A stretch of 64,000 nt of DNA from Patescibacteria group bacterium (GTDB taxonomy: Bacteria; Patescibacteriota; Patescibacteriia; UBA10025; JAHIVO01): positions 43,694-107,693 of the forward strand of contig JBAZKE010000001.1 in NCBI GenBank assembly GCA_041650915.1, given 5' to 3'. A model generated the notes under the pieces. The model was not told the DNA's origin. It was given only the letters and a program-made list of their open reading frames with translations, and searched no databases. Position 1 is the first letter of the stretch. The number at the start of each line of letters is the position of its first letter. Below, piece after piece: positions 7,606 to 51,576 of the stretch. A program made the translations under genes and the position numbers.

Positions 7606-7634
7606 TTGACATCGCATCAGAGTTTTGTTACACT
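7606..7634 (+). promoter_or_regulatory. candidate sigma70-type promoter for rpoB (TTGACA-17-TACACT)
   Basis: Perfect -35 TTGACA at 7606-7611, a 17-nt spacer, and TACACT at 7629-7634, inside the ~300-nt AT-rich intergenic region upstream of rpoB. Confidence 0.35.
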
Positions 7635-7764
7635 CCATAGCACTATATTCCTAAGTGGAAAACGTCTAAACATTTTAATGACGTTGTCGAACAATAAATT
7701 AGGTCACTAAGTTTTTTTATTTTTCGCGCTCTTATCCTAGCTGGGATTGAGAGAGGGTTTTTTT

Positions 7765-27200: not shown

Positions 27201-30200
27201 CGCAGGCAATCACCACCGGCACCTACACTATCGAAAATGACACCAATGCTACCACGGTGCAGTATGAGAATGTCGCCGACAGCGCGCCATTCACCTTTGC
27301 GGACATATCCTGGGGCCAGGCTGGCACCAACGGCATCACGTTTGCAGGAGAATCAGGCTCGTCCGAATGGCACCTGAAAGTGACTGACGCATCGCAGGCA
27401 GTGAGCTACGTGTCCGTATCATGGTCAGATGCGAGCGTTACCGACGGCCTGGAAATAGCCGCGTCGGACGGCACCAATACGGACGGCAACAACAATACCA
27501 ACTGGGATTTCGGGTTTACCATATCCGGCACGTCAACCAGCTTTGGCACGGTAAAAGTCGCGGTTAATACTACCGTACAGACCGACAGCGCCGTCATATC
27601 GGGCGGCACATGGCAGATCACGGCTGATGCGGATCCGATTTCCGGGGATGTTATTACGGCGTACATTGACGGAGTGGACGATAGCCTTGAAGCAGTTGGC
27701 GTAACGAAGTATGACGGCACTGGGACCATCAGCGGCATGGTGCTGAATGGATATGAAGTTTGGTTTGGGAGCACCAGTGATACTCCGAGCTTGACCCTGA
27801 CAGACCTCGAGAACTGGGATTACGACAATGATGAAGACGTATTCTTTTCAGTTGCATCGAGCACGCTTGAGATGAACGGCGATTCAGCCCATTCGCTCAA
27901 CGTACTGCAGATCATGGATAACGCGACGCTCACCTTGAGCACAGGGCAGACACTGAATGTTACCGAACTTTTTGTCAGGAGCGACGTTACGGACGGCCAT
28001 CTGACCATGAGCGGATCGCCCATCATCAATGTAAAAGAATTGTTTAATAATGCGGGCGATTATAACGCTTCCACCGAAACGGTCAACATGGCAAATACCA
28101 TGATCGGCTATATTACCGCGGCAGGCGCGTCTGACAGCGATATTTATAACCTCAACATCAGCCCGACGAGCGGCCTATTAACGGTCAGCTTAAACTCGGC
28201 GCTGGTGGTGAATAACGCGCTGACGGTTACTGCCGGCACATTTGCGGTTGACGAAAACCTGAACGTGAACGGTGCAGAAAATGCGTTAACAGTTTCGGGC
28301 GGTACGCTGAGCCATACTGCCGGCACGCTCACGGTTGGCAATAGCACTAACGAAGATTTGTATATTACGAGCGGTGTAGTAACCACGAGCGGCGGCAACC
28401 TTGTCGTGACGGATGACATCCGCCATGCGGGTGGCACGGTGAATATCAATGACGGGTCCAATGTGGACGTAACAGGCCAGTATACCAATGACCTGGCCGG
28501 CTCGCCGATCCTGAACCTGAATGGCGGCAGCATGGACTGCCAGAGCCACATTCTGCTTGACCGCGGAACCGTAAATCTCAACGGCGGCGTGCACCGGGCA
28601 GGCGTGGCGGTTACGGACGGCATTATCGAGATGAACCGGAACAGCACCAAGAGCGAGCATTTTTATTTCAACATGACGGGCGGCGAGCTGCACGGACGGG
28701 CAATCGTCATATATGACAATAAAACGCTTCACACGGATACGGTGTCAGGCGGCCAGTTGTGGGTCGACAATATTTCGGAAATTACCGCTACCGAGGAATT
28801 TTACCAGTGGAACACGGACAGTCCGACATTCTGGAGTCTGGTGCTGAACGAAGACGACGCGAGGATCAACAGCACGTCGCAGATTACCGACCTCAACGGC
28901 GACCTCATCATCAACAGCAGCATGGGCTTGTACCAGCAGGGCCGGGAAATCAAGGTGGCGGGTAATTGGACGCATAACGGTACCACGTATTCGCACGGCA
29001 ATGGAACTGTCCATATGGATGGAGTTGACAGCACAGGATCCATTAACGGCACTACTGCATCGACATTTTATAACCTGTACCTTGAGGACAATACGAGTTT
29101 ATCCAATGGGAATGTAACGGTCGAGTATGTGTTGCTTTTACTTGGAGGAATTGATTTTTCCATCGGGTCTGGCAGGACGGCAACTGTTACGTCTGCCGGT
29201 GGCATGACGGGCCTGACCGGATCTACGGTGAGCGGCGACGGCACGTTGATATTTCAAGCGCCTACGTTAACCGGGCCGGCCCCTGCCATTGATAGTCTGC
29301 TTCGCATGGATGCGGTTGATACGGACCAGAGCATCGAGAGCGGCCCGACCAGAAATTTCGGAAGTACGGTCGAGTTTTACAACAGCGGCGCGAGCTCGCG
29401 CACGATTACGATCGGCAGCGGCGCTGACCAGACGTTCAATTTTTACGGCGATGCCACGTCCACGGTCACCGGCGGCGGCACGCTCTCGGTCAGGCAGGAT
29501 ACCTATAATCCAATTGTCAATATCGTCGGTGATTTTACGATCGGCGCGAGCAGTACGTACATTGCCTCAGCTACGGGCGCACTCAACCTTAGTGGCAGTT
29601 ACACGAATACCGGCGCTTTTACCCACAGCAGCGGCACGGTGACGCTCAACGGGACAGCGTTGCAAACCTTGAGCGGGACTATGACTGGTGCGAGTTCATT
29701 TAATAGCCTCACTATTACCAATGCATACGGTAGTGTTTCTGGGTGTGATACGCTGTTCTCGCCGGGAGTTTCATTTGGTACATCGGCGACAATCGCCGGG
29801 ACGTATACAATTACGACAGCAGGGGTTAACGTCCGCTACAATTCCGGGTCTACGTATACCGTAAATAATATTAATTGGCAGGGCGGAGCAGGCGATGAAA
29901 TTATTTTCCGCAATTCAAACCTCACGTCGGGTACGTGGCTTCTTGCTGTATCCGGGACGCAGACGAACGTCTCGTATGTCAATGCCGCACGGTCAGACGC
30001 CTCATCGGGAGACGTGATCGACGCTTCGAACGGCACAAATACTGATTGTGATAATAATACCAACTGGGATTTTTACGCGGGGATACTCGTGACCGGCACG
30101 CTCGGGTTTTCTCCGGCAGCCGGCACGGTAAAAGTAGCGGTTGACGGTGACGTGCAGACTGACGGCTATGACGTGACCGGCGGCAGCCCGTGGGAGGTGT

Positions 30201-33200
30201 ACACTGATGCCGAACTTGCCGGGGATGAGACGGTCACCGTATTTATCGACGGCGCGGAGACTGCGGATGAATCCACGGCAATCACCGGGTACGATGGCAG
30301 CGGAGACATTACCGGTATGGTCCTGAACCAGCACGTATTAACGGCCGGCAGCGCTGACAACCATACGCTGGTGGTGGACGATTTCAGTACGTATTGGAAC
30401 ACTGATGATGAAGACGTGATGCACGGCATTTTTCTGGGAATGGAAACCATGACTCTTTATGTTGACAATAGCCAGTATACGGACGAGCGGCTTCATATTG
30501 TAAGCGGCACGACCGTACGCCTTACCAGCAATTCGGGTGATTTGGAAAATTTGAATACTTTTAATATAACGATTGACGGAACCCTGGACATTACCGGAAC
30601 TGCGACTGCTCAGATTGACGTATACGGCAATTGGGACAATAACGGCGCCTTTAATTCGAATACGAGTTATACGATATTTAGGGCAACGAGCGGGTCGTTT
30701 ACGATTGATTCAACGGGCGCCTCAGCATCGGCATTTTATCGGCTGACACTCGGCGGCGTGAGCGGTTCGGCTACGTTTACGCTCGAATCACCCCTGGTGG
30801 TGAACAACAATCTGATGATTAATTATGGCACATTGGACACCAAGTCGGGCGAAAACAACAGCATTACGGTTGGCGGCACTTGGACCAATTATGATACGTT
30901 TACCGCTAATACCGGCTCCGTGACGTTTACCGGTACTGGAAGCATCAATGGCGATCACGACACGACGTTTTATGATCTCACAATCGGCGACGGTACGGAT
31001 GGGACGATGACCGTCAATGGCACGGATGATCCGACCGTTACCCACAATATTGATATTGACGCCGGCGATATACTCTCGATCGGATCAGACAGGACGGTAA
31101 CGTATACCTATGATGCCAATTCATTCACGCTTGACGGCACGATATCCGGAGCCGGCAGGCTGGTCTATAAGAGTTCTGACGCATTTCCAGCGACCGGCAC
31201 GATAAGCACAATTGTGCGGTTTGATGCGACGGACGTTATCTGGCAAAATACCGGTGGACGTACGTATGGTAATACGGTTGAGATTTACCATAATTCTGAC
31301 GCACTGCCCAAACTGATTTATCTTGCGGGCAGCGGCGCTACCGTGATTAATGGGGATTTGTTATTCATGACCGGCGCATCAGCATCGCTGGACATGACCG
31401 TATCCAATACCAATAATTACGATGTGGATATTGCCGGGTCATTGAGCGTTTCAAAAAGCGGCAGCGGCGATATCACCTTTGACGCCGGAACTGCTGCGTA
31501 TACGGTTGGCGATGACGTGAATTTCACCAATGCGGCAGTAACGCTCGAGGCCGGCAGCCTGGTGGAAATGACCGGCGCGGAAGACGGCACCGGTACCCTG
31601 ACGTCAGCCGGGACTACGCTGCAAGACGTCACGCTGTCCGGCGGCACGATCACGCTTGCGGATGCGACCCATACCATCAGCGGTTCGCTTGACATGACCG
31701 GCGCGGCCGTTACTGCCGGCACGTCTACCGTACTGATGAACGGCGCCGTCGCGTCACTATACGGCGGTGGCAATGCGCTGAATAATTTGACGCTGTCTTC
31801 TGATTCGACAACAACCTTGTATTCGGATATTGACATTGACGGGGTGCTTGATATTACCGCCAGTGATACGCTCGACATTTACGTTGGCATTTTTGCTACC
31901 TTAACACACTATGCGGAATTGACGTTTAACGGGACGATCTCAGGTATAGGGGGGTACTTAGTGTACCAGTCCAGTACCCAGTTCCCGGCCGCAGGCGGGA
32001 CATTCGGATCTATGCTGAACGTGCGGTTTGATGCGAACTACGTCAATATGGTGATACCGGGCAGGAACTACGGTACCGGCATATTTGAGTTGTATAATAC
32101 AGGCGCTACTAATAAAACGATCTATCTCGGCACCGGTACCGGGCAAACGTTTAGCCAAACGGAGGAGGTTAACATCGTGCGCACCGGCGCCGGCAGCCTG
32201 CTCGTAGATGCAGATTTCTACGATCCGACGGTTACGTTCGGGTATATGACGATCGGGGCGGGCACCACGTATTTGTCAGCGAACTCGCATACGTTCACCT
32301 GCTTTTACGATTGCGACAACCAGGGGACGTTTACCCACAATGACGGCACGGTTGCTGTCGGCACGAGCGGCATGAATTTAGCGGGTGACTGGACCGGCTC
32401 GAGCGCGCTGTACAATCTTACGACCGATAAAAATCTTGATTTTGACGGAGCGGTGACCGTCGCCAATACGTTCACGATCGATAACGGGAGCAATACGGTT
32501 GACGTGGAGTTCGAGCCCGGTGCTACATATACATTCGCCAATATCGTGTGGGGCCAGGCAGGCACGAATGCGGTAACGATGCACGGTGAAACTTCAAGCG
32601 CCTGGAATTTGAAAGTTACGGATGAATATTCATCACAGCAGGTGAGCTATGTGACGGTCAGCTATTCAAACGCATGCGTGTCGGGCGGGCAAAATATTGA
32701 TGCGACCGACGGCACTAATAATAATAACGGCAATAACAGCTGCTGGGATTTCAGCGATTCAATGGATATTTCAGGGACGGCGGACGGCAACGCGGGCGAG
32801 CTCGTGAAACTTGCTGTAAATGGCGTTCGGACGACCGAAGTGGGAAACATCATTACCGGTGCGCCGAATACATGGACGATTGCGAATGTTGGCACGATCA
32901 ATTCCGGTGATGTAGTAACGGTTTGGATCGAGAATACTATTGGAAACATTTCTGACACGGATGAATCATCGGGCATTACGAAGTATGACGGCAGCGGGGA
33001 CGTTACTGGCATGGCACTCGATACGCACGTACTGACGGTGGGCAGCGCGGACAACCCAAGCTTTGTGCGCGACGACTTTTTGCTGTACTACAATGACGAC
33101 GACGAAGACATCATGCATGGAAAGGATGAAACGCCGGATTGTAAGGATGGCATATGTCCGACTGATCTGAATAGTGACATTGATAACGTGTATTCGGATG

Positions 33201-42200: not shown

Positions 42201-45200
42201 ACAATTTAGAAATGCTTCCCGCTGAATCCGAAGATTATGAGTGGTCAAGCGATACCGGCATTTATGGGATTTACCACGATCTAACGATCAATTCCAACGC
42301 CGCCGCCAATTTTGACGAAAAGCAGGCAGTTCTCCGGCTTTATGGCACTGACCAGACGATTGATGCCAATGGGGCTGATCTTTACGATGTCGGCACGTGG
42401 ACGGATGGAGTGCAGGCAGTATCCATAGCTTCGGATGTCACTATAACCTCGCGTTTTCTGGAGTTGTATAGCGGCAATACCATAACGATCGCGGATGGAG
42501 CCACCATGACCGTCTCTGGTGCCCAGACAAACATTATTGCAGACGGTGCGGTCCTGACCTCGGTCGGTACTGGCATGCTCCGGTTCCTGCCGGGCACGAC
42601 AGGCCCCGGCACCACAGGCACGCTGAGCGCGAACGTGCGCTATGATGCGACTGATGGTGATATCGCGAGCGGGACGATTGACGCGCGCACGTACGGAAAC
42701 AGGGTTGAGGTTTACTCCGGGAGCAGCTCGGCTGACCGCACCGTGACAATAGCGTCCGGCACGTACACGCTGTCCGGCGCGAGTTCGCACCTGCACCTCC
42801 TTGCAAACGGCGATAATAACGTAACGCTCGCCGGTGCAACGAACAATCCTACCGTTACGATCGGGGGCAATGTCGACTTTGCCGGTACGGGCGGCGGGAG
42901 TGAGATAATCACGTCCGGCACCGGCACGTGGACCGTCTCGGGTAATGTCGATTTCACCGGCGGGACGTATACGGCGACATCCGGCAACACGCTCATCATG
43001 AACGGCACCGGCACGCCTTCGATCACGTCAGCGAGCAATTCATTGTACAATTTCCAGACCAGCGGCACCGGCACGATCACGCCCCAGGATAATTTGACGG
43101 CTGCAAACGACATAACGCTCGGAAACGGCACGACTGTGTCCAGCGCGCATGACATCACGGCCAATGGCGGCGACCTGACTACCACGGGCGGCACCGGCAC
43201 CGGCGTGCTGACCCATACGGCTGGAACCGTTTCGATATCGGGAACGGGCAATGTCGGCGGCAACAGCGCGTGGACCGTCCAGAATCTCACGTTTTCCCAG
43301 GCCGTGTGCGCTGATTATACGACAACAGCGACCGGTACCGGCACCATCACGGTCAATGGCACGCTCCTGACGGATGACTGCACGTCGGGCGAAACCGAGT
43401 ACCACAAGCTCGCCGCTGGGTCAAAGACGTGGATCCTCACCGGCACGACGCCGTTTACCAATGATGGAGGCTTGGACGGCGGCACGTCTCTATTCCGGTT
43501 TACGACTGCCGGGCCGGCTACGATACCGCTCGGCAACGTCGGCGGGTCAACGGGGTACTATACGCTTGAGCTCAAGCCGTCAGGTTCCAGTCCGACCTAT
43601 ACATTCGCGGCTGGCGCTGATTTCAATATCAATAATAACTTAGTTATCGGCGACGGGACAAATAGCGTGACGGTCAGCGGAACCGCTAATAACCCGACGC
43701 TTGATATCGCCGGCAGTGTTTCCTGCACCGCGGGCGCGAGTACCAATACGGTCGCGACAGGGACGGGCACGTGGCATGTCGCTACTAATGCGGATTTGTC
43801 AGAGTGCGATTCGTGGACGGCCACCAGCGGCCATACGCTTGATATGGACGGTGCGGGCCAGATCACGGCAGCAGGCAAGACGCTTTATAATTTTCAGTCA
43901 TCGGGCATGGGTGTCGTCAGTTATTCCGCCATGGACGTGAATGGCACGTTTACCGTTGCAACAGGGAGCAATTTTGAGCAAGCGGATGAAGATAATATCA
44001 ATGTCGCGGGCAATTTTACGATCCAGGCGAGCTCGACCTTCCTTGCGGCGGAAGGCGCGGGCATGCTGATTCTGGACGGTGACCTCACGTTTACCGACAG
44101 CACCGTAGGCCTTCAGGACCTTGGTGATGTGCAGGTCGGCACCTCGCCCGATACGACCAATCTCGCGTCAGACATGAAAGCAAATTCTTTGACTGTTGCA
44201 ACCGGCGATTTCTTCTATACCAATGGGTATGACCTGGATTTGGGCACCGGCGGATTGACGGTCGATGGCACGTTTGACGCGGCTGACGACGTGGAAACGG
44301 ATGAAACGCTCATTACGACGAACGGCGATGTCAGGTTCAGCGCCCCGGCAACGTTCGGGCAGGACCAGTCAACAATCGAGTTCGACGGGTCTTCCGGCAC
44401 GGACGTGCTGTTGACGAGCGCTAAGCCGATTTATAACCTCGTGATTGACGGCGGCGCCAATCTACTTGTTGAGCTTGGCAGTGCGCTTGACGCGGACGGC
44501 TCGATCACCATCAACGTCGGTGAGCTTGATGTCACCGCCGCGCCGTACGCGATAACGCTTGGCGGCAGCTGGATAAACGCAGACACGTTTACGGCGCGCA
44601 CTGGTACCGTTACTATAGATGGCAGCTCGGCGGTTGGCACGTTTGACATCAATTCAACCGGCGCCACTGCCGCGTCATTTTATAACTTGATACTGAATGA
44701 TGCCGGCGGCGGGGATACGTTTGAATTGGAATCCGCGCTGGATGTTGACAATGACCTGACGATCACCGGCGGAACGCTGGATACCAAGAACGGATCAAAT
44801 TGGGGAATTAGTGTTGGTGGCGACTGGACAAACGCTGACATCTTTACGGCTCGTGCAGGCATCGTCACGTTTAACGCAACGGATACCGGCCATACGATCA
44901 ATTCCGGATCATCTCAGTTTTTCTCCGTTGTATTTGATGGTGCCAGCGGCTCGTGGTCGCCATTGACGAACAATATAACCATTACCGGCACCCTGACCAT
45001 GACCAATGGCACGTTTGACACTTCTGCGGGCACTGCCAATGTTACGGTTCGGAGCCACGTACAGTGTGGAGCAACCTGCGGCACCATTAACATGGCGTCA
45101 ACCAACACTTTTACGGTGCAGGCGCTATTTACCGCAACGATCAATTTCGGCACCAATGTTGCGGTTGCGACTGACTGGACTTTTTATAACCTCACGCTCC

Positions 45201-48200
45201 ATTCAACGAGCAGCGGCACGATCCGGTTCAACGGCACCGGCACCGGTGAAACTAACGTGCTCAATAATCTGAGCGTTACCGGCACGGGATTTGATACCAC
45301 GGTCGATGTCAATACAAACGACCGCATCATTGACGCGAATAATGTTTCTCTCAGCGCGGACGCTGTATTTCAGGCATCAAACTCGGCGGCATTTACCGTG
45401 AGCGGCAACTGGTCCAATAGCGGCACATTTACCTCAAATTCAGGCACGGTTACGTTTGACGGCGCGGATTCGTCGACGCAGGCATTTACCGGCGATACGA
45501 CGTTCGGCAGCTTTACGGCAACGACCGCCGATAATTCTGCGGGCCGTACGCTGCAGTTTGCCGGGAGTTCCACAACTGCCGTGTCCGGAACCTGGACGGT
45601 CACCGGCGCATCCGGCAAGGTGCTTACTCTGCAGTCATCCGATACGAACAACTGGACGATTAATCCCACTGCGGCGTCCGTGACGTACGTCAGCGTTTCC
45701 CGGTCTACTAATGCCGGTGCGTCTTTCTGCGCCACGTATTCAAATGACGGCGGGAACAACGTAAATTGGGCTATTTCCACGGGTGCGCAGTGCCAGGTCA
45801 TTAGCGGTACGATTTATAGTGATATCAGTTCTGCTGAGTATGACTGTACCACTCCGTATACCGTTAAATTACGCGTGAATGGTTCTGGTACGTATTCCAC
45901 GGAATGTACCAATACGCCAACCATGGGATATTTCGAGTTTAATAATGTAGCCTCGACTAGCGGCGACGTTATTACGTTATATTTAGACAATGAAGAATAT
46001 GAGGGTACGACCGTCATGGTTACGGACGGGACCATACAGACCGACGTTGATATCTATTGGGATAATACGATCGTGAGGGCGGATACTGGTTCGATTACCA
46101 ATGCGAATCTGGCAACGGGTGATGACGGGGATGATGATGTCAAGTACAATGTGGCAACGAATAACGTGACGTACGATTCTAGTTTCGGTTTGTACGTGTG
46201 GGATGGGGATACATACGATCCGGGCGGTACGATTGCACTGTCAAACGCTGATGTATGGGTTGGGCCCAGCGCAACACTATACTTTGATACCGCCACCAAT
46301 ACGCCCGGCAATAATATGAGCGTTATGACTGGCGCAACTGTGCATGTCGATGCCGCTACCACGTTTGCGAACGGCATTGATGTGATGGGGAGCGTGATCG
46401 GAACCGGAGATCTTACGCTTACCATCGGTTCTATGGTTTCAAGCAACGGGATCGGAACCGTTACTATGACGGGTGGAACTGTAACGCTCGGTGGTGGCGG
46501 CACATTTCAGTCAAGCAGTGCCGATTGGACGTTCCATGATTTGTATTTAGCGCAACCGCCGGCTTGTAGCGTACCGGCAACGTGCACCGAGATCACCTGT
46601 GCAAAAGTTACCAATGCTTCAGGTACTGGCGGCGTGACGATCAGCGGCACCGTTACAAGCGATATATGCTCACCTCCGATGCCGTCAGAAAATACCTATG
46701 CGCATCAGCTTGATGCTGCTGTGGGTAATCCAAAAGTATGGACTTTTAACGGAGATTCCGGAGACGCGAGTCCCTATGTTCCGATTACGAGTGTATATAT
46801 GGAAAATGTCGAGACGCATGAATCAACCTTTGCGTTTACCAGTATTGATTCCAACGGAGTCAGCATGCCGTTAAACTCGATGGATTTTTATAATCTTTCA
46901 ATCAATCCTGCGTCTGCGACTGACTACAATTTCGAAGCGCCTGCCTATCGGCTCTGGAATGACTTATTTATTCACCCGAATGCAAATGTGATTTCGGGTT
47001 CAACAGTAATGGCATTTGCTTGCGATGATTGCGAGATCAATGCGGGCGGTACCACATTTGGTGATGTGGAAGTTTATTATTCTGATAAAAACGTTTCGGT
47101 CACTACAACGGGCACTGATTTCAGTATTGCTGGCCGGCTTTGGATGGCAACAGGGATAAGCTATACGACGGATTTGGTTATAGGTGAAGGCCGCACCGTA
47201 ACTATGGAAAACGGCAGTACCGTAAACCTTGGCACTACGTCTACGGTTGGAGGAGCGGGCACCTGGGAGTTTTTGCCGGGCTCATCCGGTCCGGATGACG
47301 TGGGGACGGTTAATTCGGTTGTTCGGTACAATGCTTCATCGGATAATATAGCGAATACGACGTTTGATCCGCGCACATACGGTAATAACGTTGAGATATA
47401 TTCCGAGAGCAGCGCAGGTGACCGCTCGGTTGCGTTCGCGGCAGGTACGTACACGCTGTCCGGCGCAAATGCTGATTTTACTATCGAATCAGCAGGCACG
47501 AGCAACTTGAGCCTCGCTAATTCCGCAGGTACGGTGAATATGGCTATCGGCGGCGATCTGGGATTTACCAAAGGAAGCACGGGCACGCCGTCGGTTACGA
47601 CCGGTGCCGGCACCTGGGCCGTAAGCGGGGACGTTGATTTGAGTAACGGCACGTTTACGGCATCTTCGGGCCATACGCTTGAGCTGGATGCGGCAGCGGA
47701 CGGCACGGGGCTCATCACATCGGCAGGGAATACCCTCATGAACTTCCTCGCGTCCGGGAGCGACTTGGTTGGGAGCACGGACGCGCTCGATGCAGACGGC
47801 ACGTTTGGGGTAAGTGAAACAGCTGATTTTGCCCAAGCTGCTGATAATAATCTGAACGTTGCCGGAAATTTCACGATCGCTTCCGGCGCTACCTTTAATA
47901 AAGCTTCTGGCAGCGGCACGCTCATCTTTGACAGTAATACCGACTTTACGGACAGCAGCTCGCCGCTGCAAGACCTTGGCAGCGTGACAATATCCGGGCT
48001 GGTTGACCTGCTTTCAAATATGAAGGAAGAGTCCCTTGCTATCAGCGGTACGCTCCGCCAGGACGGGTATGACCTTGATGTGGGCGGGGGTATCACGGTG
48101 CAGAGCGGCGCAAATTTATGGCCGGTGGCTGGTGCAGGCGGCGATCCGGCGATTAATCTCGAGGGAAGCCTGACTATTGAGGATGCTGCGGTATTCAATT

Positions 48201-50383
48201 CCGAGAACTCTACGGTCACGTTTGACGGCACGAGCGGCACGGCGGATCTGATAACCGACCCTGCTTGCACAGACTGCAATCTTGATACGCTTGTTGTCAA
48301 TGACGGCGGAGGCGGGTTATTGACCGTTGAGGTTGAAGACGCGCTTGATGCAGCACACGTCACGATAACGAGCGGCACGCTTGATGCGGTCGCGCTGGAG
48401 AGCAATGCCATCAACGTTTCCGGGAATTGGGTCAACGATGACACGTTTGAAGCGCGAAATGGCACGGTGACGTTTGCAGCAACGGACGGGGATAACAGGA
48501 TCGAGAGCGGCATATCGCCTTTTTACAATGTTGATTTTAACGGAGCGGACGGCGCATGGACCTTGTATGAGCCGCTGGACGTCAACGGCACGTTTGACCT
48601 GACGCAAGGCACGTTTGTCCAGGGAACGGATTATAATCTCAACGTTGCCGGTGATTTCACGCTTGCGAATGGCACGACGTTTACCAAAGACACTGGCACC
48701 GGTCTTGTTATTTTCGACGGCGACCTGACATTTACGGACAGCAATGGGACCAAACAGGATATCGGAAGCGTAGAAATCGGAATGTCGCCTGATACTACGG
48801 AACTCGCGTCTGATATGTCAGCGACCACGCTTAATGTCAATAATAATGATATCCTGAATACCAATGGATATGACCTGAATATCGGCACGGGCGGGGTTAC
48901 TATTAAAAATGGCGGCGTTATCAACGCTCTTGATGACGTTGAGACGGATGAAACGATGATCAATACTGAGGGTGACTTTGAGATTAGTTCGGGTGGCGAC
49001 TTTAATTACGACCAGTCAACGATAATTTTTGACGCAGGATCAGGCACTGATGACCTTATTACCGACGGATCGGGCGATAACTATGCGGTGTACAATCTGC
49101 AGTTAAATGATGCCGGTGGCAGCTTGACTGTTGAGGTTGAGGATGATGTTGTTATCAAGGGCAATGTTACGGTTACTGCCGGCACGCTTGATGTTAAGAC
49201 GGAGAATAATGCCATTACCGTCGGCGGCAGCTGGACTAACGCAGACACCTTTACTGCGCGCGGCGGTACGGTAACATTTGATGGCGCTTCCGGCAGCGCT
49301 GGCACGTTTGACATTGATTCTACCGGTGCGACAACCGATGACTTTTACCACCTGGCTTTCAACGACGCTGGTGACGGCGATACGTTCCAGCTCGAATCAG
49401 CACTCGACGTAAACGGTAATCTCACCATCACCGGAGGCACGCTGGATACCAAGTCAGGGGAGGATAATGGCATTACGGCAGCAGGCAATTGGACCAATGA
49501 TGATACGTTTACAGCAAATAGCGGGACGGTAACGCTTGACGGCACGGGGCAGCAGGCGCTCTCCGGGCAGATGACGGGCGTATCAGACCGGTTTTACGAC
49601 CTCACGGTCACAAACACCGGCGTATCGAATCCCGACGTTATCTTCGCCGCTTCTGCCGAAACAGCGCATACGTTTACCGCGGGTACGGCAGGATCACAGG
49701 TGCAGTTCGACGACGCCGGGACGTATACGTTCCAGAATATCGATCTCGACGGCCAGGACCCCGCGACGCGCATTGTCCTGACGAGCGATTCCGCAGGCAC
49801 CCAGTGGGATATTAACGTCGCTGGCACGAGGAGCGTGTACAGCACCGATGTGCAGGACTCGAACGCGTGCGGCCAGCCGCCTGATATCAATGCCACACAC
49901 ATATCGAATAAGGATTCAGGCAATACGGACTGTTGGGACTTCACGGCAATTACCTTCACGATCAGCAGCAATGCGATCGACCTTGGCACGCTTTCAACCG
50001 GCTCTGTCAGTACGACGAGCCATACCGTCAGGACGGTCACGAGCGCAGATAGCGGCTACACGACGCTCGTCTACGACGACGGCAACCTCAGGAAGGGTTC
50101 CGACGATATCAACGACGTGGCTGACGGTGCCGTGACGGCAGGTTCGGAAGAGTACGGCCTCTCGACCACGGACAGCAGCCAGGACATTGCCCAGGATGCG
50201 GCCTGCGGCAGCGCTCCGTACACCGCATCCGCACTCACCGCGACCCAGCAGTCAGTCGCAGGAGCTGCCTCCGGTCCGGTGGATGAAACGATCACGGTCT
50301 GCTATGCAGCCTCGATCGACGTGAATACGATTTCGGGATCGTACGTTCATACCGTCACGTATATAACGGTAGGCCAGTTTTAA
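21248..50383 (+). CDS. giant (up to 9,711 aa) membrane-anchored, Thr/Gly/Asn/Asp-rich repetitive surface fibre / adhesin-like protein
   Basis: Single uninterrupted 29.1-kb ORF. Start is uncertain: GTG 21248, ATG 21479 (preceded by AAAGAGG) or ATG 21608. Parts in order: in-frame HTH (aa ~28-78), long hydrophobic anchor (aa ~125-152), acidic PE-rich linker, Ig-like domains, HxH tail-collar-like repeats, beta-helix-like GGT/NGT repeat arrays organised into ~8 super-repeats, and a C-terminal ~140-aa domain shared with the next gene. Confidence 0.9.
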   Translation: MALSKPFKRAGQFLGGNKNKQGIDFNALPELLTLDQVSEILGVHPNTLRNWDRSGKFAALRVGPRKDRRYEKEAVYRMHLEMKPAVHAADREVDGRKPEPSDNKYVIHPGFSWNKLRLYFMSRRFSIFVYSVGLVAFTFVVMQVTFFAYVFLVRAEEKPPLVARLAPSAVTGWQGAEKAKTIDALGTAPLDDFSIYNSAVFYNGSEPIVVEEEEAAGTAEPAQEAPAEPAVVTPQDTEPEPEEQAPTEEPQAPADVPAEEAEEPVDASAMPAEEGEAPAVEEGLPAEAGVDGGAATDAAVPATEEAVTDESDATVVKGMVLGEETDAADEPLSEQNPVLEARSFAVPEAIPAGTQISDARLLLSFAADTYPDNEDVITFSYSVDGSSWTVLDSQGLISDMSNGTHEGYWSFSIPELHVIDEIADLIVRVEYHAVAPVEMSTAYLDGIELDLTLEEPDAVAAEIIESVEIENDVLDTGEDPTINVHIEEESPLSFLGASSRQRTVKDVRLQDPNGREIEAVYTIADEQQGSVKTAAYTFDTGAFSKPGKYTVTLEVEQNGTVEEVEQDFTWGVLAINPDYAIQKLGQETQFSIGVLDDSGDIVCDAEVTLEIVDPAGHAVTQSTVDGRITVSDSCLTKGVYQGPDYYSTYTPQMPGTYQLHLTATHYNGTRTLDSEFAVEANPRFTVKRTGPTRIFPYVYQPMLLEVTAYEDFTGEITEIVPGVFEIEVHNDGAIRPFDQGGHIDHQIVWKASLKAGESATFGYSFKTPEESPALYMAGPAAVGTVWDEGRQWQMAIDATYVYLLSSSNSAPAGWSYVDTYNSKYVRGASSFSGTGGGAATHTHTYSESVTDSSVNTAGIVCSRRCLSVAGLGHTHTSTGSTIGPENNDPAHYTYRLWKYDTADATPMTIPQNAFIFWKDNSADPSSPWTRFSSGDDRMVKLADSHTTGGSTTHKHTITWGSLNATTGTNIEGILGDIYTMTSATHTHTAPTSSYTSEETLLPEYVTLDIWQQPDATPQAIVTGTVAMFDGTLPTGWTAISNGSPYQNRLVRGSTTAGSQAGSATHGHDDTEGTTGGASAQVKPGEGLDVLTAAENHTHGIRLADFSSGDQTPPYVDFVLAECTTCAITTITAGGIAYQENESTPIDGTSDNKTITLLVNGANTACGGGACTDTIDDDTGAWSISNITSSSGDIITVYLDDETEEATTVFVSDDTTQSNVDLYQNAVVVRHDTGASITNANLLTGDGGDDDIKYSVTGGALSVDTGFELHVWAGDTYDPGGAVTTQGTGGDVHVDDNATMYIDTIDSRITNNIMIDSGAALTVQVNSQVDGGAAGGVTVAGTLNASGGTFTVGDGTDEVVYVDSGTVNVDGGILTIKDDLYNNSAGGTEDINISSGTVNVGDDFRVESTADVDVTGGTVNVTGMLDVNGGTFDTSGSSDVNVTEILDQDGGTVTFGGTSTVDFGGVANAVNDGALNQTGGTVTFGNSTDEDLYANAGATITLSGGTTEIKDDFFLPSVTGSATVSNTVNMTAGSNETIDLDGGTLTVYEGADINCDYRLDVRAASIVDLNGGSLDTGNYWLIYDGTLNLDGGDHNIGTSGYLYFLPNATSITFNQTGGQITTYRLFVGNGAGTMYTPTVTGGTINIGTAAGTKDIYFTEAGDYKFYNVTIEENAVFNTSSTNSLKLAGSFTINNGKTFGANAEAIQIEGDNAGSPTGGFINEGTFTYGTSTVTMLNGEIKGSPDVMLTWSSFYNLNIGDATTSNTIDVGGSNNFWVQNAFAITSGDALSIGSGLYAGHSGPTFTLDGTVSGDGTLAFDSASPGPGTGGTLSANVRYDTTAGNIAAATFDARTYGGDVDIYLGELVIGAKSAIAGAGTLAIGGGLTLTDESAEGLSLDMNTNDPTTTVAGSVTVCATCTLSAPSTVSDTAFIVNGSWANSGTFTANGGQVTLDGSATQTLSGTMSGASSFANLKIRDASARTVDFEAQAITTGTYTIENDTNATTVQYENVADSAPFTFADISWGQAGTNGITFAGESGSSEWHLKVTDASQAVSYVSVSWSDASVTDGLEIAASDGTNTDGNNNTNWDFGFTISGTSTSFGTVKVAVNTTVQTDSAVISGGTWQITADADPISGDVITAYIDGVDDSLEAVGVTKYDGTGTISGMVLNGYEVWFGSTSDTPSLTLTDLENWDYDNDEDVFFSVASSTLEMNGDSAHSLNVLQIMDNATLTLSTGQTLNVTELFVRSDVTDGHLTMSGSPIINVKELFNNAGDYNASTETVNMANTMIGYITAAGASDSDIYNLNISPTSGLLTVSLNSALVVNNALTVTAGTFAVDENLNVNGAENALTVSGGTLSHTAGTLTVGNSTNEDLYITSGVVTTSGGNLVVTDDIRHAGGTVNINDGSNVDVTGQYTNDLAGSPILNLNGGSMDCQSHILLDRGTVNLNGGVHRAGVAVTDGIIEMNRNSTKSEHFYFNMTGGELHGRAIVIYDNKTLHTDTVSGGQLWVDNISEITATEEFYQWNTDSPTFWSLVLNEDDARINSTSQITDLNGDLIINSSMGLYQQGREIKVAGNWTHNGTTYSHGNGTVHMDGVDSTGSINGTTASTFYNLYLEDNTSLSNGNVTVEYVLLLLGGIDFSIGSGRTATVTSAGGMTGLTGSTVSGDGTLIFQAPTLTGPAPAIDSLLRMDAVDTDQSIESGPTRNFGSTVEFYNSGASSRTITIGSGADQTFNFYGDATSTVTGGGTLSVRQDTYNPIVNIVGDFTIGASSTYIASATGALNLSGSYTNTGAFTHSSGTVTLNGTALQTLSGTMTGASSFNSLTITNAYGSVSGCDTLFSPGVSFGTSATIAGTYTITTAGVNVRYNSGSTYTVNNINWQGGAGDEIIFRNSNLTSGTWLLAVSGTQTNVSYVNAARSDASSGDVIDASNGTNTDCDNNTNWDFYAGILVTGTLGFSPAAGTVKVAVDGDVQTDGYDVTGGSPWEVYTDAELAGDETVTVFIDGAETADESTAITGYDGSGDITGMVLNQHVLTAGSADNHTLVVDDFSTYWNTDDEDVMHGIFLGMETMTLYVDNSQYTDERLHIVSGTTVRLTSNSGDLENLNTFNITIDGTLDITGTATAQIDVYGNWDNNGAFNSNTSYTIFRATSGSFTIDSTGASASAFYRLTLGGVSGSATFTLESPLVVNNNLMINYGTLDTKSGENNSITVGGTWTNYDTFTANTGSVTFTGTGSINGDHDTTFYDLTIGDGTDGTMTVNGTDDPTVTHNIDIDAGDILSIGSDRTVTYTYDANSFTLDGTISGAGRLVYKSSDAFPATGTISTIVRFDATDVIWQNTGGRTYGNTVEIYHNSDALPKLIYLAGSGATVINGDLLFMTGASASLDMTVSNTNNYDVDIAGSLSVSKSGSGDITFDAGTAAYTVGDDVNFTNAAVTLEAGSLVEMTGAEDGTGTLTSAGTTLQDVTLSGGTITLADATHTISGSLDMTGAAVTAGTSTVLMNGAVASLYGGGNALNNLTLSSDSTTTLYSDIDIDGVLDITASDTLDIYVGIFATLTHYAELTFNGTISGIGGYLVYQSSTQFPAAGGTFGSMLNVRFDANYVNMVIPGRNYGTGIFELYNTGATNKTIYLGTGTGQTFSQTEEVNIVRTGAGSLLVDADFYDPTVTFGYMTIGAGTTYLSANSHTFTCFYDCDNQGTFTHNDGTVAVGTSGMNLAGDWTGSSALYNLTTDKNLDFDGAVTVANTFTIDNGSNTVDVEFEPGATYTFANIVWGQAGTNAVTMHGETSSAWNLKVTDEYSSQQVSYVTVSYSNACVSGGQNIDATDGTNNNNGNNSCWDFSDSMDISGTADGNAGELVKLAVNGVRTTEVGNIITGAPNTWTIANVGTINSGDVVTVWIENTIGNISDTDESSGITKYDGSGDVTGMALDTHVLTVGSADNPSFVRDDFLLYYNDDDEDIMHGKDETPDCKDGICPTDLNSDIDNVYSDDLFRVLSGATVTLSADADDYYDVLDAHDVTNEGTIVTTTTGLTPKLQISGSWNNTVAATFTSSLEQFTFDSSSAGETITTGGDPVYSLFFMGTGSWSNADALTVNNGLYVQNTGTFNVTGNDVTVKGASGMHISDGTVAISSGIVTVGDSTDEDLILDGGTLNASGGTLIVQDDLITTAAGNAEDINVTGGVLTVNGSLDINDGTVDFGPGASGAIDVNVSDCMHQTAGAVTVGTGSYAVDVDIDNGEFTSACTSLTHGYEITGGTLTIDTNADVAITDAYYFQTGGTFNLDGGSIAMAGPAGYSFEFSGGTFNLDGGTVDADDDKDYYVNLSDTGPVTFNMYSGDIYTSAFYVQNNYTTTTLNPALGGTIHISGPESGGSKFYQYSDDSPHFYNLSIEKGIVGYPVSFQSGGQNETILDGDFTILNADDYFRPWGQAIAIKGDYTNNGTCYSCNSSTFTFDGTAGQALSGNLNGTSMLDAVIIENSGGTVDIDNYLRANSLTIDNSGGTVDIEWESDADGTNYHEFADIVWGQAGANAITFTKETSANSQWYLKVTDTSQQVSYVAVADSNACVSGGQTIMADDGTSVDNDNNDCWDFGLVIISGTAPSYIDGTTIKVAVDDEEQAGKTGSVTSEAWTIEDVLVPDGAIVTVWVDGAGEITESTAVTEHIGDGDITGMVLNINVITLGSTSDAATLTANNLAQWQNGDNEDVMHSVLSDIGGGQTMYSDYSSEYTDDTFRILTGTTLTINSGTGEPTWEDALIVDNLILDGSLTMSGGYSPQVEIWGDWDNNGDFNTDGSETVQFRAAETGHTIDHTGSSDSDIQQLTFNGSGGRWTVLHPSTWVINGDMTMSNGIADIATNMRVDGGDVTGNGVVNAFAGSFEVTGAGNFGGDSAWVFNDLTFSGNTYTTTAAGSGSITVGNVLTIGSGHALNAGSKTWILSDTGTPLIIAGTLTPSSSTFRYTGAGATTVFDASYYNLEVIPGADSVTHTLSSDLLSGVISVANNMVIGGSHLACTVSGALYMTNLDVGNNVTINIGTAFVAPSAAASFTVGGSWSNSDTFTHSSGTVTFDANTTGKTIQSNSNNWNNVTFNNASGGWSFSDTTTLAGDLTVTAGTLSGTVDIDVQGGDLKGDGTVTMTAGTVNLINDGTIGTSSGSNDWTFYDLNLGQTGCAANTTTTANAGTGAIIITNTFTYDACSCGEECARYHRVHPGARTWRLTGTGTPLESGIINVGNIGTSVFQFTGTGSAVAVAGYYFYDLELIPGSATDYSFSAPTLYAIGHDLTINVNAAGNFDPGSAYVEMGGATGTLDVNGADIQELRTDLGTSNAITVASDAMISYRFVIFDAGDVLSVSSGATVTHTGATANILGGTISGDGLLTFTNTSTGPSTGGTVTADVRFDATDGDITSSTFDTRTYGGDLELYSAHSSGRTITPAAGTLTVGGNLNTTSTTSTLAAAFNTNNPTTLIGTIDNALTGDVSICATCTLSAPGSLTLYGDYQNSGTFTHNNGTVTLGAPGIVQAQAMYGAMTGASAFYNLTVENDFEANGPSFVNDSEVSNTYTITTPAVLVYYDTGTTHTYNNVNWNGQAAGSRIRLVGTDTWNLEVSGTQSVSYVDASYSNACGGDVIDADNGTNNNGGNNSCWDFIQGVEIDGIAYAENESTPLGIGRDVTLLVNGEENSCSFTPCTGSTDGVGGYAIADVDVLSGDVVTVYLDDASEEATMVYISNGTAQTNIDLYQNAVIARADTGSITNANLSTGDGGDDDIKYAVAGNNATFDSGFELHVWTGDTYDPGGQIITQGAGGDLHVDDSALAYVDTASSAIAGSVSIDTGGTVTMQSGTWTIAGDMTVTGTFNGTGDTVVNGGDMTGTGSVSLTGGSVTMAAGGSIDLGGTDTFSTLIINNGDATTTVVGSLNISGGLEVSAGDTLANSTGTMKLNTSTATLALAGTISGSGTLVYQSGVAFPTGGTLSMNVIFDPHLTSQSMSARTYGGDVKINDIAGNPSSNRTVTMLAGSYTIIGQLWMVEDTMRIITLDAATNDPTVQINGDLTGSGTSSNLTLHMGAGTWTVGDDVNLTHMDVDVETGGELELTGSTDSILSASATDIFYDLTMSGSDVEFGPVGEGWSAIAVSHDLSLTGTLDAKLATVQMVGAGGSIIGGGNTLYKLKIDPDPDGTVTLTTSDLTISNSISTPLEVTDSGDILSIESGRVLTVTGATTTEISGVGSITGDGTLRFDHNSGGPGTTLGTLGVAVRYDATLGDIAPETFDARTYGGDVEVYAGTGLIERVVTAPSSGTFAFEKALTTTCSSCNLLTLGFDGVTDPTVTIDGALTIGATTGLSAPSSVDFTLNGGYTNSGSFYDNSGTIVLGGSAIQTLDGTMTGVSDFNNLTITNASAAGIVFAKAATISGTYTITTADVKVTYLAGAAYTVTDINWDGQDAGTRIEFVSSTPDTQWNLNVSGTQTDVSYVNVTDSNACAGDEIVANNGTNYNGGNNDCWLFGIHISGTSNTTGTVKAAINTSLEPDSDLIAEGTWDIETSTVPVVNDVITVFIDEAEESGESSAVTRYDGSGSLTGVVLDANVLSIGSDNSIYVRLDDFVYTRSLDEDLMFDLSTGECSSRTLTIDAVGQYTDETLSILGGSQLYLLSYFNDGGPCNRYDTVNTHNIDISGYLSETGDRESTINVSGSWANSGTSTSGIGGTQGGFESGNSVVNFTAPSGTETINSSAAISGGGLRAFDDIVFNDSSGSATYLLKSDLDANHDITITGGTLDAESGVNHDIYVGGVWNNDDTFEARWGKVIFDGAGTFMLYAGSSWFYDLEFNNVGGLWDFDEDAVTAGNDVVVTVGILETEVDITIKGGDLTGDGTVTFNGGTLTMEQTGTIGTASGSNNWTLYNVTYGLGGQCTLDYTTTANGGAGTITVAGQMQGSACSCGGECFKVHRLDPGARTWIFSGTGLSGAADKIPLVDSTFINNGGTSTARFTATTGPGYVVQVSDNDYYNLEMLPAESEDYEWSSDTGIYGIYHDLTINSNAAANFDEKQAVLRLYGTDQTIDANGADLYDVGTWTDGVQAVSIASDVTITSRFLELYSGNTITIADGATMTVSGAQTNIIADGAVLTSVGTGMLRFLPGTTGPGTTGTLSANVRYDATDGDIASGTIDARTYGNRVEVYSGSSSADRTVTIASGTYTLSGASSHLHLLANGDNNVTLAGATNNPTVTIGGNVDFAGTGGGSEIITSGTGTWTVSGNVDFTGGTYTATSGNTLIMNGTGTPSITSASNSLYNFQTSGTGTITPQDNLTAANDITLGNGTTVSSAHDITANGGDLTTTGGTGTGVLTHTAGTVSISGTGNVGGNSAWTVQNLTFSQAVCADYTTTATGTGTITVNGTLLTDDCTSGETEYHKLAAGSKTWILTGTTPFTNDGGLDGGTSLFRFTTAGPATIPLGNVGGSTGYYTLELKPSGSSPTYTFAAGADFNINNNLVIGDGTNSVTVSGTANNPTLDIAGSVSCTAGASTNTVATGTGTWHVATNADLSECDSWTATSGHTLDMDGAGQITAAGKTLYNFQSSGMGVVSYSAMDVNGTFTVATGSNFEQADEDNINVAGNFTIQASSTFLAAEGAGMLILDGDLTFTDSTVGLQDLGDVQVGTSPDTTNLASDMKANSLTVATGDFFYTNGYDLDLGTGGLTVDGTFDAADDVETDETLITTNGDVRFSAPATFGQDQSTIEFDGSSGTDVLLTSAKPIYNLVIDGGANLLVELGSALDADGSITINVGELDVTAAPYAITLGGSWINADTFTARTGTVTIDGSSAVGTFDINSTGATAASFYNLILNDAGGGDTFELESALDVDNDLTITGGTLDTKNGSNWGISVGGDWTNADIFTARAGIVTFNATDTGHTINSGSSQFFSVVFDGASGSWSPLTNNITITGTLTMTNGTFDTSAGTANVTVRSHVQCGATCGTINMASTNTFTVQALFTATINFGTNVAVATDWTFYNLTLHSTSSGTIRFNGTGTGETNVLNNLSVTGTGFDTTVDVNTNDRIIDANNVSLSADAVFQASNSAAFTVSGNWSNSGTFTSNSGTVTFDGADSSTQAFTGDTTFGSFTATTADNSAGRTLQFAGSSTTAVSGTWTVTGASGKVLTLQSSDTNNWTINPTAASVTYVSVSRSTNAGASFCATYSNDGGNNVNWAISTGAQCQVISGTIYSDISSAEYDCTTPYTVKLRVNGSGTYSTECTNTPTMGYFEFNNVASTSGDVITLYLDNEEYEGTTVMVTDGTIQTDVDIYWDNTIVRADTGSITNANLATGDDGDDDVKYNVATNNVTYDSSFGLYVWDGDTYDPGGTIALSNADVWVGPSATLYFDTATNTPGNNMSVMTGATVHVDAATTFANGIDVMGSVIGTGDLTLTIGSMVSSNGIGTVTMTGGTVTLGGGGTFQSSSADWTFHDLYLAQPPACSVPATCTEITCAKVTNASGTGGVTISGTVTSDICSPPMPSENTYAHQLDAAVGNPKVWTFNGDSGDASPYVPITSVYMENVETHESTFAFTSIDSNGVSMPLNSMDFYNLSINPASATDYNFEAPAYRLWNDLFIHPNANVISGSTVMAFACDDCEINAGGTTFGDVEVYYSDKNVSVTTTGTDFSIAGRLWMATGISYTTDLVIGEGRTVTMENGSTVNLGTTSTVGGAGTWEFLPGSSGPDDVGTVNSVVRYNASSDNIANTTFDPRTYGNNVEIYSESSAGDRSVAFAAGTYTLSGANADFTIESAGTSNLSLANSAGTVNMAIGGDLGFTKGSTGTPSVTTGAGTWAVSGDVDLSNGTFTASSGHTLELDAAADGTGLITSAGNTLMNFLASGSDLVGSTDALDADGTFGVSETADFAQAADNNLNVAGNFTIASGATFNKASGSGTLIFDSNTDFTDSSSPLQDLGSVTISGLVDLLSNMKEESLAISGTLRQDGYDLDVGGGITVQSGANLWPVAGAGGDPAINLEGSLTIEDAAVFNSENSTVTFDGTSGTADLITDPACTDCNLDTLVVNDGGGGLLTVEVEDALDAAHVTITSGTLDAVALESNAINVSGNWVNDDTFEARNGTVTFAATDGDNRIESGISPFYNVDFNGADGAWTLYEPLDVNGTFDLTQGTFVQGTDYNLNVAGDFTLANGTTFTKDTGTGLVIFDGDLTFTDSNGTKQDIGSVEIGMSPDTTELASDMSATTLNVNNNDILNTNGYDLNIGTGGVTIKNGGVINALDDVETDETMINTEGDFEISSGGDFNYDQSTIIFDAGSGTDDLITDGSGDNYAVYNLQLNDAGGSLTVEVEDDVVIKGNVTVTAGTLDVKTENNAITVGGSWTNADTFTARGGTVTFDGASGSAGTFDIDSTGATTDDFYHLAFNDAGDGDTFQLESALDVNGNLTITGGTLDTKSGEDNGITAAGNWTNDDTFTANSGTVTLDGTGQQALSGQMTGVSDRFYDLTVTNTGVSNPDVIFAASAETAHTFTAGTAGSQVQFDDAGTYTFQNIDLDGQDPATRIVLTSDSAGTQWDINVAGTRSVYSTDVQDSNACGQPPDINATHISNKDSGNTDCWDFTAITFTISSNAIDLGTLSTGSVSTTSHTVRTVTSADSGYTTLVYDDGNLRKGSDDINDVADGAVTAGSEEYGLSTTDSSQDIAQDAACGSAPYTASALTATQQSVAGAASGPVDETITVCYAASIDVNTISGSYVHTVTYITVGQF
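27290..49945 (+). repeat. protein-level tandem super-repeats (~2.3-3.1 kb period, ~8 copies) within giant CDS
   Basis: Each unit ends with ...NI.W.GQ.AG..I.F......W.L.VSGTQ..VSYV.V..SNAC...I.A.DGTN..GNN.CWDF. The W/C-WDF codons are at ~27.50, 30.07, 32.74, 34.99, 38.14, 40.70, 45.76 and 49.94 kb. Divergent at nucleotide level. Confidence 0.6.
50051..50317 (+). repeat. 267-nt perfect direct repeat, copy 1 (3' end of giant CDS)
   Basis: Identical nucleotide string to 51244..51510 (offset 1193 nt). Antisense ORFs 50071..50295 and 51264..51488 translate to identical 74-aa peptides, confirming identity. Confidence 0.9.
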
Positions 50384-50538: not shown

Positions 50539-51576
50539 ATGAAAGTACTAAAAAACACTAGTGTGGTGGTGTTGATGGCGGCATTTATCGCTGTCATGCT
50601 CTTTCCGGTCCAGGCAGCATACGCGGGTACCCTCACCACACCGCGCGATTACCTGAACAGGGTTAAGGAGAGTTTAACCTCCGGTGTGCAGCACGAGGTG
50701 TTCTTCACTACCGAGGGGGCAGTTTCAGGAGGAGCAGGGAACAACGAGATTACGCTCGTCTTCCCGGATGCGGATGACGGCGGCTGGTGCGCCACCGCAG
50801 CAGCCGACATGACGGTCACCGGCATTACGGATCCGACAGGCGGTTCCGAGAGCGCAACGTCGCTCCCCGGCACACTCGTCGGTACGTGTACGCAGGGTGC
50901 AGGCGCTTCGAGCTACGACACCTTCACAATCACCGGGGTCAATGATCTCAGCTCGGCTACGAAGTACGGCGTCCGTATCGCGGATGGCACAACGGCAGAG
51001 CTCGGTACGCCGGCTGCGTCGACGACGGGTCTCATCACCATTACCACAAACAACGGCTCAACTGACGTTGACTCTGCATTTACGAGCGTCGATATCATCA
51101 GCGATGACCAGGTGGCTGTTTCCGCCGATGTCCCATCGAGCATTACTTTCACGCTCAGCGATACCACGATCGACCTTGGCACGCTCTCAACGGGCGCGGT
51201 CAGCACTTCGTCACATACCGTCCAGACCGTCACCAATGCGTCGAGCGGCTACACGACGCTCGTCTACGACGACGGCAACCTCAGGAAGGGTTCCGACGAT
51301 ATCAACGACGTGGCTGACGGTGCCGTGACGGCAGGTTCGGAAGAGTACGGCCTCTCGACCACGGACAGCAGCCAGGACATTGCCCAGGATGCGGCCTGCG
51401 GCAGCGCTCCGTACACCGCATCCGCACTCACCGCGACCCAGCAGTCAGTCGCAGGAGCTGCCTCCGGTCCGGTGGATGAAACGATCACGGTCTGCTATGC
51501 AGCCTCGATCAGCGCAAGCACGGTAGCGGGCGCATACGCGCATACGGTTACATACGTAACGGTCGGGTTATTCTAA
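50539..51576 (+). CDS. secreted 345-aa protein sharing the C-terminal ~140-aa domain of the giant protein (possible divergent WxL-like cell-surface domain)
   Basis: N-terminal signal peptide (MKVLKNTSVVVLMAAFIAVMLFPVQAAYAG). The C-terminal 140 aa are near-identical to the giant protein's C-terminus (IDLGTLSTGAVSTSSHTV...TVTYVTVGLF). Confidence 0.8.
   Translation: MKVLKNTSVVVLMAAFIAVMLFPVQAAYAGTLTTPRDYLNRVKESLTSGVQHEVFFTTEGAVSGGAGNNEITLVFPDADDGGWCATAAADMTVTGITDPTGGSESATSLPGTLVGTCTQGAGASSYDTFTITGVNDLSSATKYGVRIADGTTAELGTPAASTTGLITITTNNGSTDVDSAFTSVDIISDDQVAVSADVPSSITFTLSDTTIDLGTLSTGAVSTSSHTVQTVTNASSGYTTLVYDDGNLRKGSDDINDVADGAVTAGSEEYGLSTTDSSQDIAQDAACGSAPYTASALTATQQSVAGAASGPVDETITVCYAASISASTVAGAYAHTVTYVTVGLF
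51244..51510 (+). repeat. 267-nt perfect direct repeat, copy 2 (3' part of the 345-aa gene)
   Basis: See copy 1. Confidence 0.9.

Follow-up and report, generated by a model that had tools for sequence, protein, structure and literature searches.

We analysed a window of 64,000 nucleotides from a Patescibacteria group bacterium (assembly GCA_041650915.1, contig JBAZKE010000001.1, positions 43,694 to 107,693), in which a single open reading frame (ORF; 21248..50383, + strand) codes for a giant protein of 9,711 aa. This ORF carries every copy of a recurring block of ~120 aa. We propose that the protein is a long surface fibre anchored in the membrane, and that the block probably closes each of its beta-helix segments as a C-terminal cap that also marks the domain boundary. 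A structural model and residue covariation indicate that the block itself most likely comprises the four to five terminal rungs of a right-handed parallel beta-helix. Unless given as residues (aa), positions are those of the window.

The copies were located with a hidden Markov model (HMM) that was seeded with the four exact occurrences of CWDF in the giant protein and then iterated over the whole protein. This search returned seven strong copies (independent E-values of 6e-45 to 1e-52) and a weak one, all on the + strand. Copy 1 (27164..27544, aa 1973-2099; E 4e-47) reads SDAS..TNWDF and lacks a cysteine pair. Copy 2 (29744..30109, aa 2833-2954; E 4e-51) also reads SDAS..TNWDF and holds an alternative pair, C2833..C2934, 101 residues apart, within NTDCDNNTNWDF. 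Local cysteine pairs are found in copy 3 (32414..32788, aa 3723-3847; E 1e-50; C3810-C3832), copy 4 (34649..35032, aa 4468-4595; E 6e-45; C4558-C4580), copy 5 (37829..38185, aa 5528-5646; E 6e-50; C5610-C5630), copy 6 (40376..40738, aa 6377-6497; E 1e-52; C6463-C6483, with CWLF) and copy 8 (49613..49978, aa 9456-9577; E 5e-49; C9541-C9562). Copy 7 (45485..45805, aa 8080-8186) is diverged, with an E-value of 6e-4 in the in-protein HMM and 2e-11 in the family HMM; it reads NNVNWAI and has its own cysteine pair, C8161/C8182, 21 residues apart. Successive block ends lie 855, 893, 748, 1051, 851, 1689 and 1391 aa apart. These values agree with the periodicity (~750-1050 aa, up to ~1700 aa) given in an earlier sequence-only reading of the window. 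The start that it assigned to the array (27290) falls inside the first block, and its end (49945) lies just past the last CWDF (49931-49942).

The structural argument is based on AlphaFold2 (AF2) and on covariation. A first AF2 run, with an alignment made of the eight internal copies only, predicted a beta-helix that reaches the block and, beyond the block, a small all-beta module; this model was left out of the cap argument. When aa 6292-6505, around copy 6, were modelled with 46 diverse family sequences, AF2 reached a predicted local distance difference test (pLDDT) of 92.1 and a predicted template modelling score (pTM) of 0.87. This second model is all-beta, with three-strand rungs every 23-31 residues that run through the block to the final W-L-F, and it superposes on solved right-handed parallel beta-helices. 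A Foldseek search of the model against the PDB gave no match with an E-value below 3. Independently of any model, mutual information with average product correction over 359 instances of the block ranked two cysteines at a separation of 21 residues as the strongest covarying pair. Moreover, 19 of the top 40 pairs were at separations of 19-27 residues (12.8% expected), and a few were near twice that distance. Covariation at this spacing is characteristic of residues stacked on successive rungs. The hydrophobic positions of the block (W.L.V, VSYV.V, I.A and W.F) repeat at the same rung spacing.

The position of the block within proteins points in the same direction. We examined 336 instances in 156 related proteins and found that, within a few residues of W.F, one of four continuations follows: a beta module starting with ISGTxY, a C-terminal domain of ~150 aa, the start of a new helix marked by YWVG..W..NW, or the end of the protein. 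Because each of these is a separate domain, the beginning of another helix or the terminus of the protein, the block constitutes a consistent C-terminal boundary of the beta-helix domain. In the giant protein, an all-beta module with the ISGT start follows blocks 1-7, and the ISGTxY start also follows many instances in the family. The example after copy 6 (40739..40987, + strand; ISGT..GTVK.AVNG..W.I..GDVITV.IDG) had a pLDDT of 74-86 in the first AF2 model and is probably a small beta-sandwich. Altogether, the modelled terminal rungs and the boundary position substantiate the capping role that the sequence-only reading had put forward. The same reading had offered a ligand-binding knob as an alternative; this finds no support, as the block is modelled as integral rungs of the solenoid with no protrusion.

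Two exclusive arrangements of cysteines were observed. In the first, Cys87 (of SNAC) and Cys108 (of CW.F) occur together in 60 of 62 family cases (Fisher p 1.6e-55, uncorrected for relatedness). In the copies of the giant protein these cysteines are separated by 20-22 residues, the length of one rung, and they are therefore suitably placed for a disulfide. Such an optional disulfide would tie the last partial rung (CW.F) to the preceding one (SNAC). In the second arrangement, Cys103 has a partner 98-107 aa upstream, located in an insertion, in 49 of 49 family instances. This type excludes the Cys87-Cys108 pair, and copy 2 of the giant protein (C2833/C2934) belongs to it. The local pair accounts for ~25% of the family instances and five of the eight copies in the giant, the long-range pair for ~20%, and about half of the family instances have neither. 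The disulfide-stabilised cap anticipated from the sequence is thus supported by the co-occurrence of the cysteines and by their rank as the top covarying pair. The SNAC..CW.F signature described in the same place stood in part, with the pair present in five of eight copies and SDAS..TNWDF in copies 1 and 2.

The block is the conservation peak of each repeat unit. Its C-terminal half has a mean pairwise identity of 48%, compared with 34% for the N-terminal half and 23-35% for the flanks. However, the description of the block as nearly invariant was too strong, since all seven strong copies agree in just 12 of 134 columns and identity is ~48% even in the best half. Nor do the blocks hold most of the cysteines and tryptophans of the protein, as had been stated; they contain 14 of 69 Cys and 25 of 120 Trp (20% and 21%) in 10% of the length. 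The longest exact DNA run common to any two blocks is 17 bp. This finding rules out the blocks as recent duplicates or recombination substrates, and indicates an ancient duplication after which the copies diverged while selection on the protein maintained them. Elsewhere in the gene, 24-mers recur at a 72-nt offset in a short exact tandem duplication (34054-34155), the sole exact DNA repeat of at least 24 bp in its 29 kb.

The units between blocks are mutually alignable over 550-1,220 residues with 31-43% identity, and composition-corrected BLAST of 300-aa tiles from the giant protein gave E-values down to 1e-86. The units are thus homologous over most of their length, in keeping with the super-repeats reported before, with units 7 and 8 being irregular. 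Their architecture is mosaic. Units 7 and 8 (~43600-49550, aa ~7450-9433) contain a different and better-conserved repeat of ~270-290 aa without the cap block, represented by the pairs aa 7605-7878 and 9152-9433 (57% identity) and aa 7751-7878 and 9305-9433 (64%).

We propose the following model for the giant protein. Each unit of ~750-1,700 aa would form a beta-helix rod segment closed by the block, whose final partial rung would be part of the closure, and a small all-beta module would link the closed segment to the next one. The hydrophobic residues of W.L.V, VSYV.V, I.A and W.F are predicted to fill the core of the last rungs, and the Asn/Asp/Gly turns (DS[ND]A, DGTN and GNN) would close the solenoid and keep its open edge from fraying or pairing with other strands. 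The block may also set the junction to the following module. In some copies, as the covariation suggests, a disulfide would staple the CW.F partial rung to the SNAC rung; in the exclusive variant, the last turn may be tied to a cysteine in the insertion ~100 residues upstream. These optional disulfides would give extra covalent stability outside the cell. Assuming ~24 residues per 0.48-nm rung, the whole protein could form a segmented fibre of ~100-200 nm. It would be held by the N-terminal helix-turn-helix (HTH), the hydrophobic segment and the acidic spacer described below, and would project from an episymbiotic Patescibacteria cell. Most plausibly, such a fibre would act as an adhesin for host attachment.

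Some observations weigh against this proposal. The distal half of the block was poor in the eight-copy AF2 model (pLDDT <50), so confidence in the block model hangs on the deeper alignment. For the distance between the cysteines and the exact geometry of the last rung, the evidence is the predicted secondary-structure string together with the covariation, and the support is computational throughout. In addition, a purely structural role does not readily explain why the polar turns DGTN and GNN are conserved like the core, and Ca2+ or another ligand could be involved. In this sense, the block might be a metal or ligand site, binding Ca2+ or a glycan in its D/N/S/T/G turns, that is repeated along the fibre for recognition of the host surface. 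The conservation of the polar turn residues fits this explanation, which we nevertheless consider rather unlikely: the block is modelled as integral rungs with no protruding knob, it stands consistently at a domain boundary beside unrelated following domains and protein ends, its hydrophobic core positions are conserved equally, and it has no sequence match to a carbohydrate-binding module or any other Pfam family.

A somewhat less probable role for the block is that of a folding nucleus, which the sequence-only reading had also named; in the manner of an autochaperone, the block would be the first part to fold and would serve as the template for the remaining helix. The structural matches include autotransporter passengers, the block occupies a position analogous to that of the C-terminal autochaperone, and one family member carries PATR repeats. 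However, the giant protein is anchored N-terminally and has no match to a beta-barrel translocator or to PATR. A nucleating role is also unlikely because of its export direction: with N-to-C export the block would emerge last in each segment, and so would serve to lock a helix and not to nucleate one. This explanation partly overlaps with the cap reading. The regular punctuation is all that favours the blocks being processing sites at which a giant precursor is cut into ~850-aa subunits. We regard this as very improbable, as the searches matched no known self-cleaving module, the model is continuous into the following strand, and many proteins have a single block or have it at their extreme C-terminus, where a cut would be pointless. 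Finally, Thr, Gly, Ser, Ala and Asp are abundant in the giant protein (Thr at 14%, Gly at 12% and Ser at 9%), and such a composition might by itself generate similar blocks. This can be practically dismissed: the in-protein HMM gave E-values of 1e-44 to 1e-52, a regular expression for the motif core had six matches in the giant protein and none in 2,000 shuffles, 665 library proteins match at E<=1e-10, and the conserved residues W, F, Y, V, I and C are non-abundant ones. Compositional chance was excluded on these grounds.

The HMM search suggested by the sequence-only reading revealed that the block is unnamed yet widespread, with ~1,550 cluster representatives. In an exhaustive profile search of 1.84 billion cluster representatives, 1,550 proteins carried the block at E<=1e-3; a threshold of 1e-10 left 665 of them and one of 1e-30 left 96. 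The majority of these proteins are 1,000-7,000 aa long and have 1-12 copies. A word-indexed search had returned one match with the profile A1 and eight short matches with the diverse alignment A4; given the outcome of the exhaustive search, the apparent rarity of the block is an artefact. The word-indexed search appears to return only proteins near the query length. Within the Patescibacteria, the block was found in Kerfeldbacteria, Saccharibacteria, Kaiserbacteria, Paceibacterota and Peribacteraceae. It also occurs in Omnitrophota, Planctomycetota, Elusimicrobiota, Verrucomicrobia, Dehalococcoidales, Treponema, Alphaproteobacteria, Ignavibacteriales, Desulfobacteraceae, Bdellovibrionales, Wallbacteria and Latescibacterota. 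This list, from named sources and a genome scan (A1, narrow pattern), is a lower bound. The consensus of 241 full instances reads ..F..G.TYTF.NI.W.GQA.GTRI.LRSS..G..W.L.V.GTQ.VSYV.V.DS(D/N)A(S/C).GG..I.A.DGTN.D.GNN.(N/C)W.F.

We found no named domain for the block, as had been suspected, in Pfam, NCBIfam or the PDB sequences. The blocks alone reached a best E-value of 0.087 against Pfam, no Pfam or NCBIfam model covered the block region in ten other block-bearing proteins and 46 extended instances, and the best E-values for PDB sequences against the profiles A1 and A4 were 0.27-0.35. The NCBI name of a close homologue is "beta strand repeat-containing protein", and our literature searches found no description of the block. 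Thus, the fold and the concept of a solenoid cap are known, and judging by its sequence this specific cap family is new to the queried libraries. Its distinguishing features are the two alternative cysteine staples, the reiteration in giant proteins and the wide phyletic spread.

The giant ORF takes up ~4% of its contig, and the genes around it in the window include the housekeeping genes metK, a Mur ligase gene, rpoB, rpoC, ftsK, recA and plsX. The exact protein of the ORF (21248-50383) is missing from a collection of 15 billion proteins in which the neighbouring proteins are present; the deposited gene call probably has a different start or is split. The N-terminus contains an HTH_17/MerR-like helix-turn-helix (21338..21487, + strand, aa 31-80; Pfam HTH_17 E 2e-6, MerR_1 E 2e-5), which presumably is cytoplasmic. 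It is followed by a hydrophobic stretch, FSIFVYSVGLVAFTFVVMQVTFFAYVFLV (21620..21706, + strand, aa 125-153), read from the sequence as a candidate membrane anchor; we infer both the anchoring role and the topology from these features. An acidic, Pro/Glu-rich spacer comes next (aa ~195-330). This arrangement fuses a cytoplasmic-type HTH_17/MerR domain directly upstream of the anchor of a giant extracellular protein (21338-21706, aa 31-153). The HTH and anchor N-terminus is kept in nine other giant homologues with 30-57% identity, and hence is a genuine part of the protein. Searches of the whole giant protein against Pfam and NCBIfam detected the HTH_17/MerR domain and sub-threshold immunoglobulin-like matches (Filamin and MG2) near aa 506-662, and the remaining ~9,000 residues had no match. 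Before the first repeat unit (~23900-24650, aa ~880-1135), HTHT and T-H-x-H motifs recur, as in ATHTHTYSE, GHTHTSTG, TTHKHTITWG, ATHTHTAPT, ATHGHDD and ENHTHGIRL. This region has no Pfam match, and from its motifs it could be a metal-binding or tail-collar-like module.

Among known folds, the giant protein is most like the right-handed parallel beta-helix proteins of the pectate-lyase-like fold, such as VacA p55, the Candida Awp adhesins, the autotransporter passengers Hap, Hbp and pertactin, and the phage tailspikes. It had no match to Pfam Beta_helix (PF13229), NosD, Pectate_lyase(_3), Pertactin or PATR (PF12951), and the solved beta-helix structures are without a sequence counterpart of its terminal block. 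It is established that beta-solenoids need caps at their termini, disulfide caps among them, to prevent fraying and edge aggregation (PMC13288671). Disulfide caps have been shown experimentally to stabilise the solenoids of fungal ice-nucleating proteins (PMC13288671). Like the block, these fungal caps are conserved elements at the solenoid end with cysteine pairs placed to tie the terminal coil (PMC13288671). Unlike them, the block has an unrelated sequence, its cysteines are optional and it is reiterated eight times in one polypeptide. The autochaperone or PATR region (PF12951) of autotransporters also resembles the block: it lies C-terminally in a beta-helical passenger and is conserved better than the rest, and the block-bearing homologue P0040 has PATR repeats. 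In contrast to autotransporters, the giant protein has neither PATR nor the autotransporter barrel, is anchored N-terminally and is encoded in a Patescibacteria genome. Its ends also set it apart from the passengers of autotransporters and two-partner secretion (TPS) systems, with an HTH and a hydrophobic anchor at the N-terminus and an unnamed domain of 146 aa at the C-terminus, and the Autotransporter, TPS and haemagglutination-activity Pfam families gave no match in it. A further comparison is with the giant surface proteins of ultrasmall or predatory bacteria, of which those of the Omnitrophota are described as very large, repetitive, membrane-anchored and extracellular, with a proposed role in cell contact (bioRxiv 10.1101/2023.11.21.568195). 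They are comparable to the present protein in size, repetitiveness and anchoring, and Omnitrophota proteins also carry the block. However, that report has HEAT/TPR-rich "Archaeovorins", dockerin-type proteins and an antiparallel beta-helix tubule, and no parallel beta-helix with a reiterated cap.

Directly after copy 8, the giant protein ends in its C-terminal domain (49943..50380, + strand; 146 aa, ITFTISSNAIDLG...TVTYITVGQF). The same domain ends at least 29 related proteins, where it lies 147-165 aa from the C-terminus. It had no Pfam or PDB match, and its assignment as a WxL domain (PF13731) found no support in either, with no WxL match in 18 C-terminal domains. The next gene (50539..51576, + strand) codes for a protein of 345 aa with a signal-peptide-like N-terminus, the last 146 aa of which are 86% identical to the C-terminal domain of the giant (BLASTP E 2e-86). 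At the DNA level, the two copies of this domain (49943-50380 and 51136-51573) are 87% identical, share an exact run of 267 bp and are ~750 bp apart; this points to a recent event of gene conversion or to a C-terminal cassette that can be swapped. Further downstream, two paralogous genes (51611-52558 and 52613-53608; 38% identity) each have a signal-like N-terminus and a C-terminal hydrophobic anchor. One of them, gene d2, has a sub-threshold match to WxLIP_PGBD (DUF916-type; E 0.022) that scores 15.3 bits, where the cut-off is 27.3, and spans 100 of 121 profile positions. By its shared C-terminal domain and this sub-threshold WxLIP-like neighbour, the locus loosely resembles the WxL/Csc cell-surface-complex clusters of Gram-positive bacteria. 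The segment 53622-58188 contains genes for a dockerin-domain protein, a cohesin-domain protein and a larger paralogue with CarboxypepD_reg domains, the latter two being ~30% identical over ~350 aa. These genes could represent a surface-assembly toolkit beside the giant gene. A broader proposal would take the block as a portable "solenoid terminator" family with a more than passive role, in which the two exclusive disulfide staples and the conserved Asp/Asn-rich last turns would give the fibre redox- or Ca2+-sensitive joints or repeated binding to the host surface. With the duplicated C-terminal domain and the WxLIP-like neighbours, the locus would then be a Patescibacteria counterpart of the WxL complex that holds host cells; we consider this combination unlikely.

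By itself, the block reveals no new mechanism, and attachment of the fibre to a host is something that we infer. Its value is mainly that of a landmark. In Patescibacteria and other uncultured bacteria, giant surface proteins of this kind mostly bear annotations such as "hypothetical" or "beta strand repeat-containing" and are hard to divide into domains. The cap block can show where to cut such repetitive proteins so that the segments are foldable and can be modelled, expressed and compared. Being present in at least a dozen phyla, it is a reasonable candidate for a new Pfam family. Moreover, its exclusive alternative cysteine pairings provide a natural case of covalent beta-solenoid capping that is of interest to protein design.

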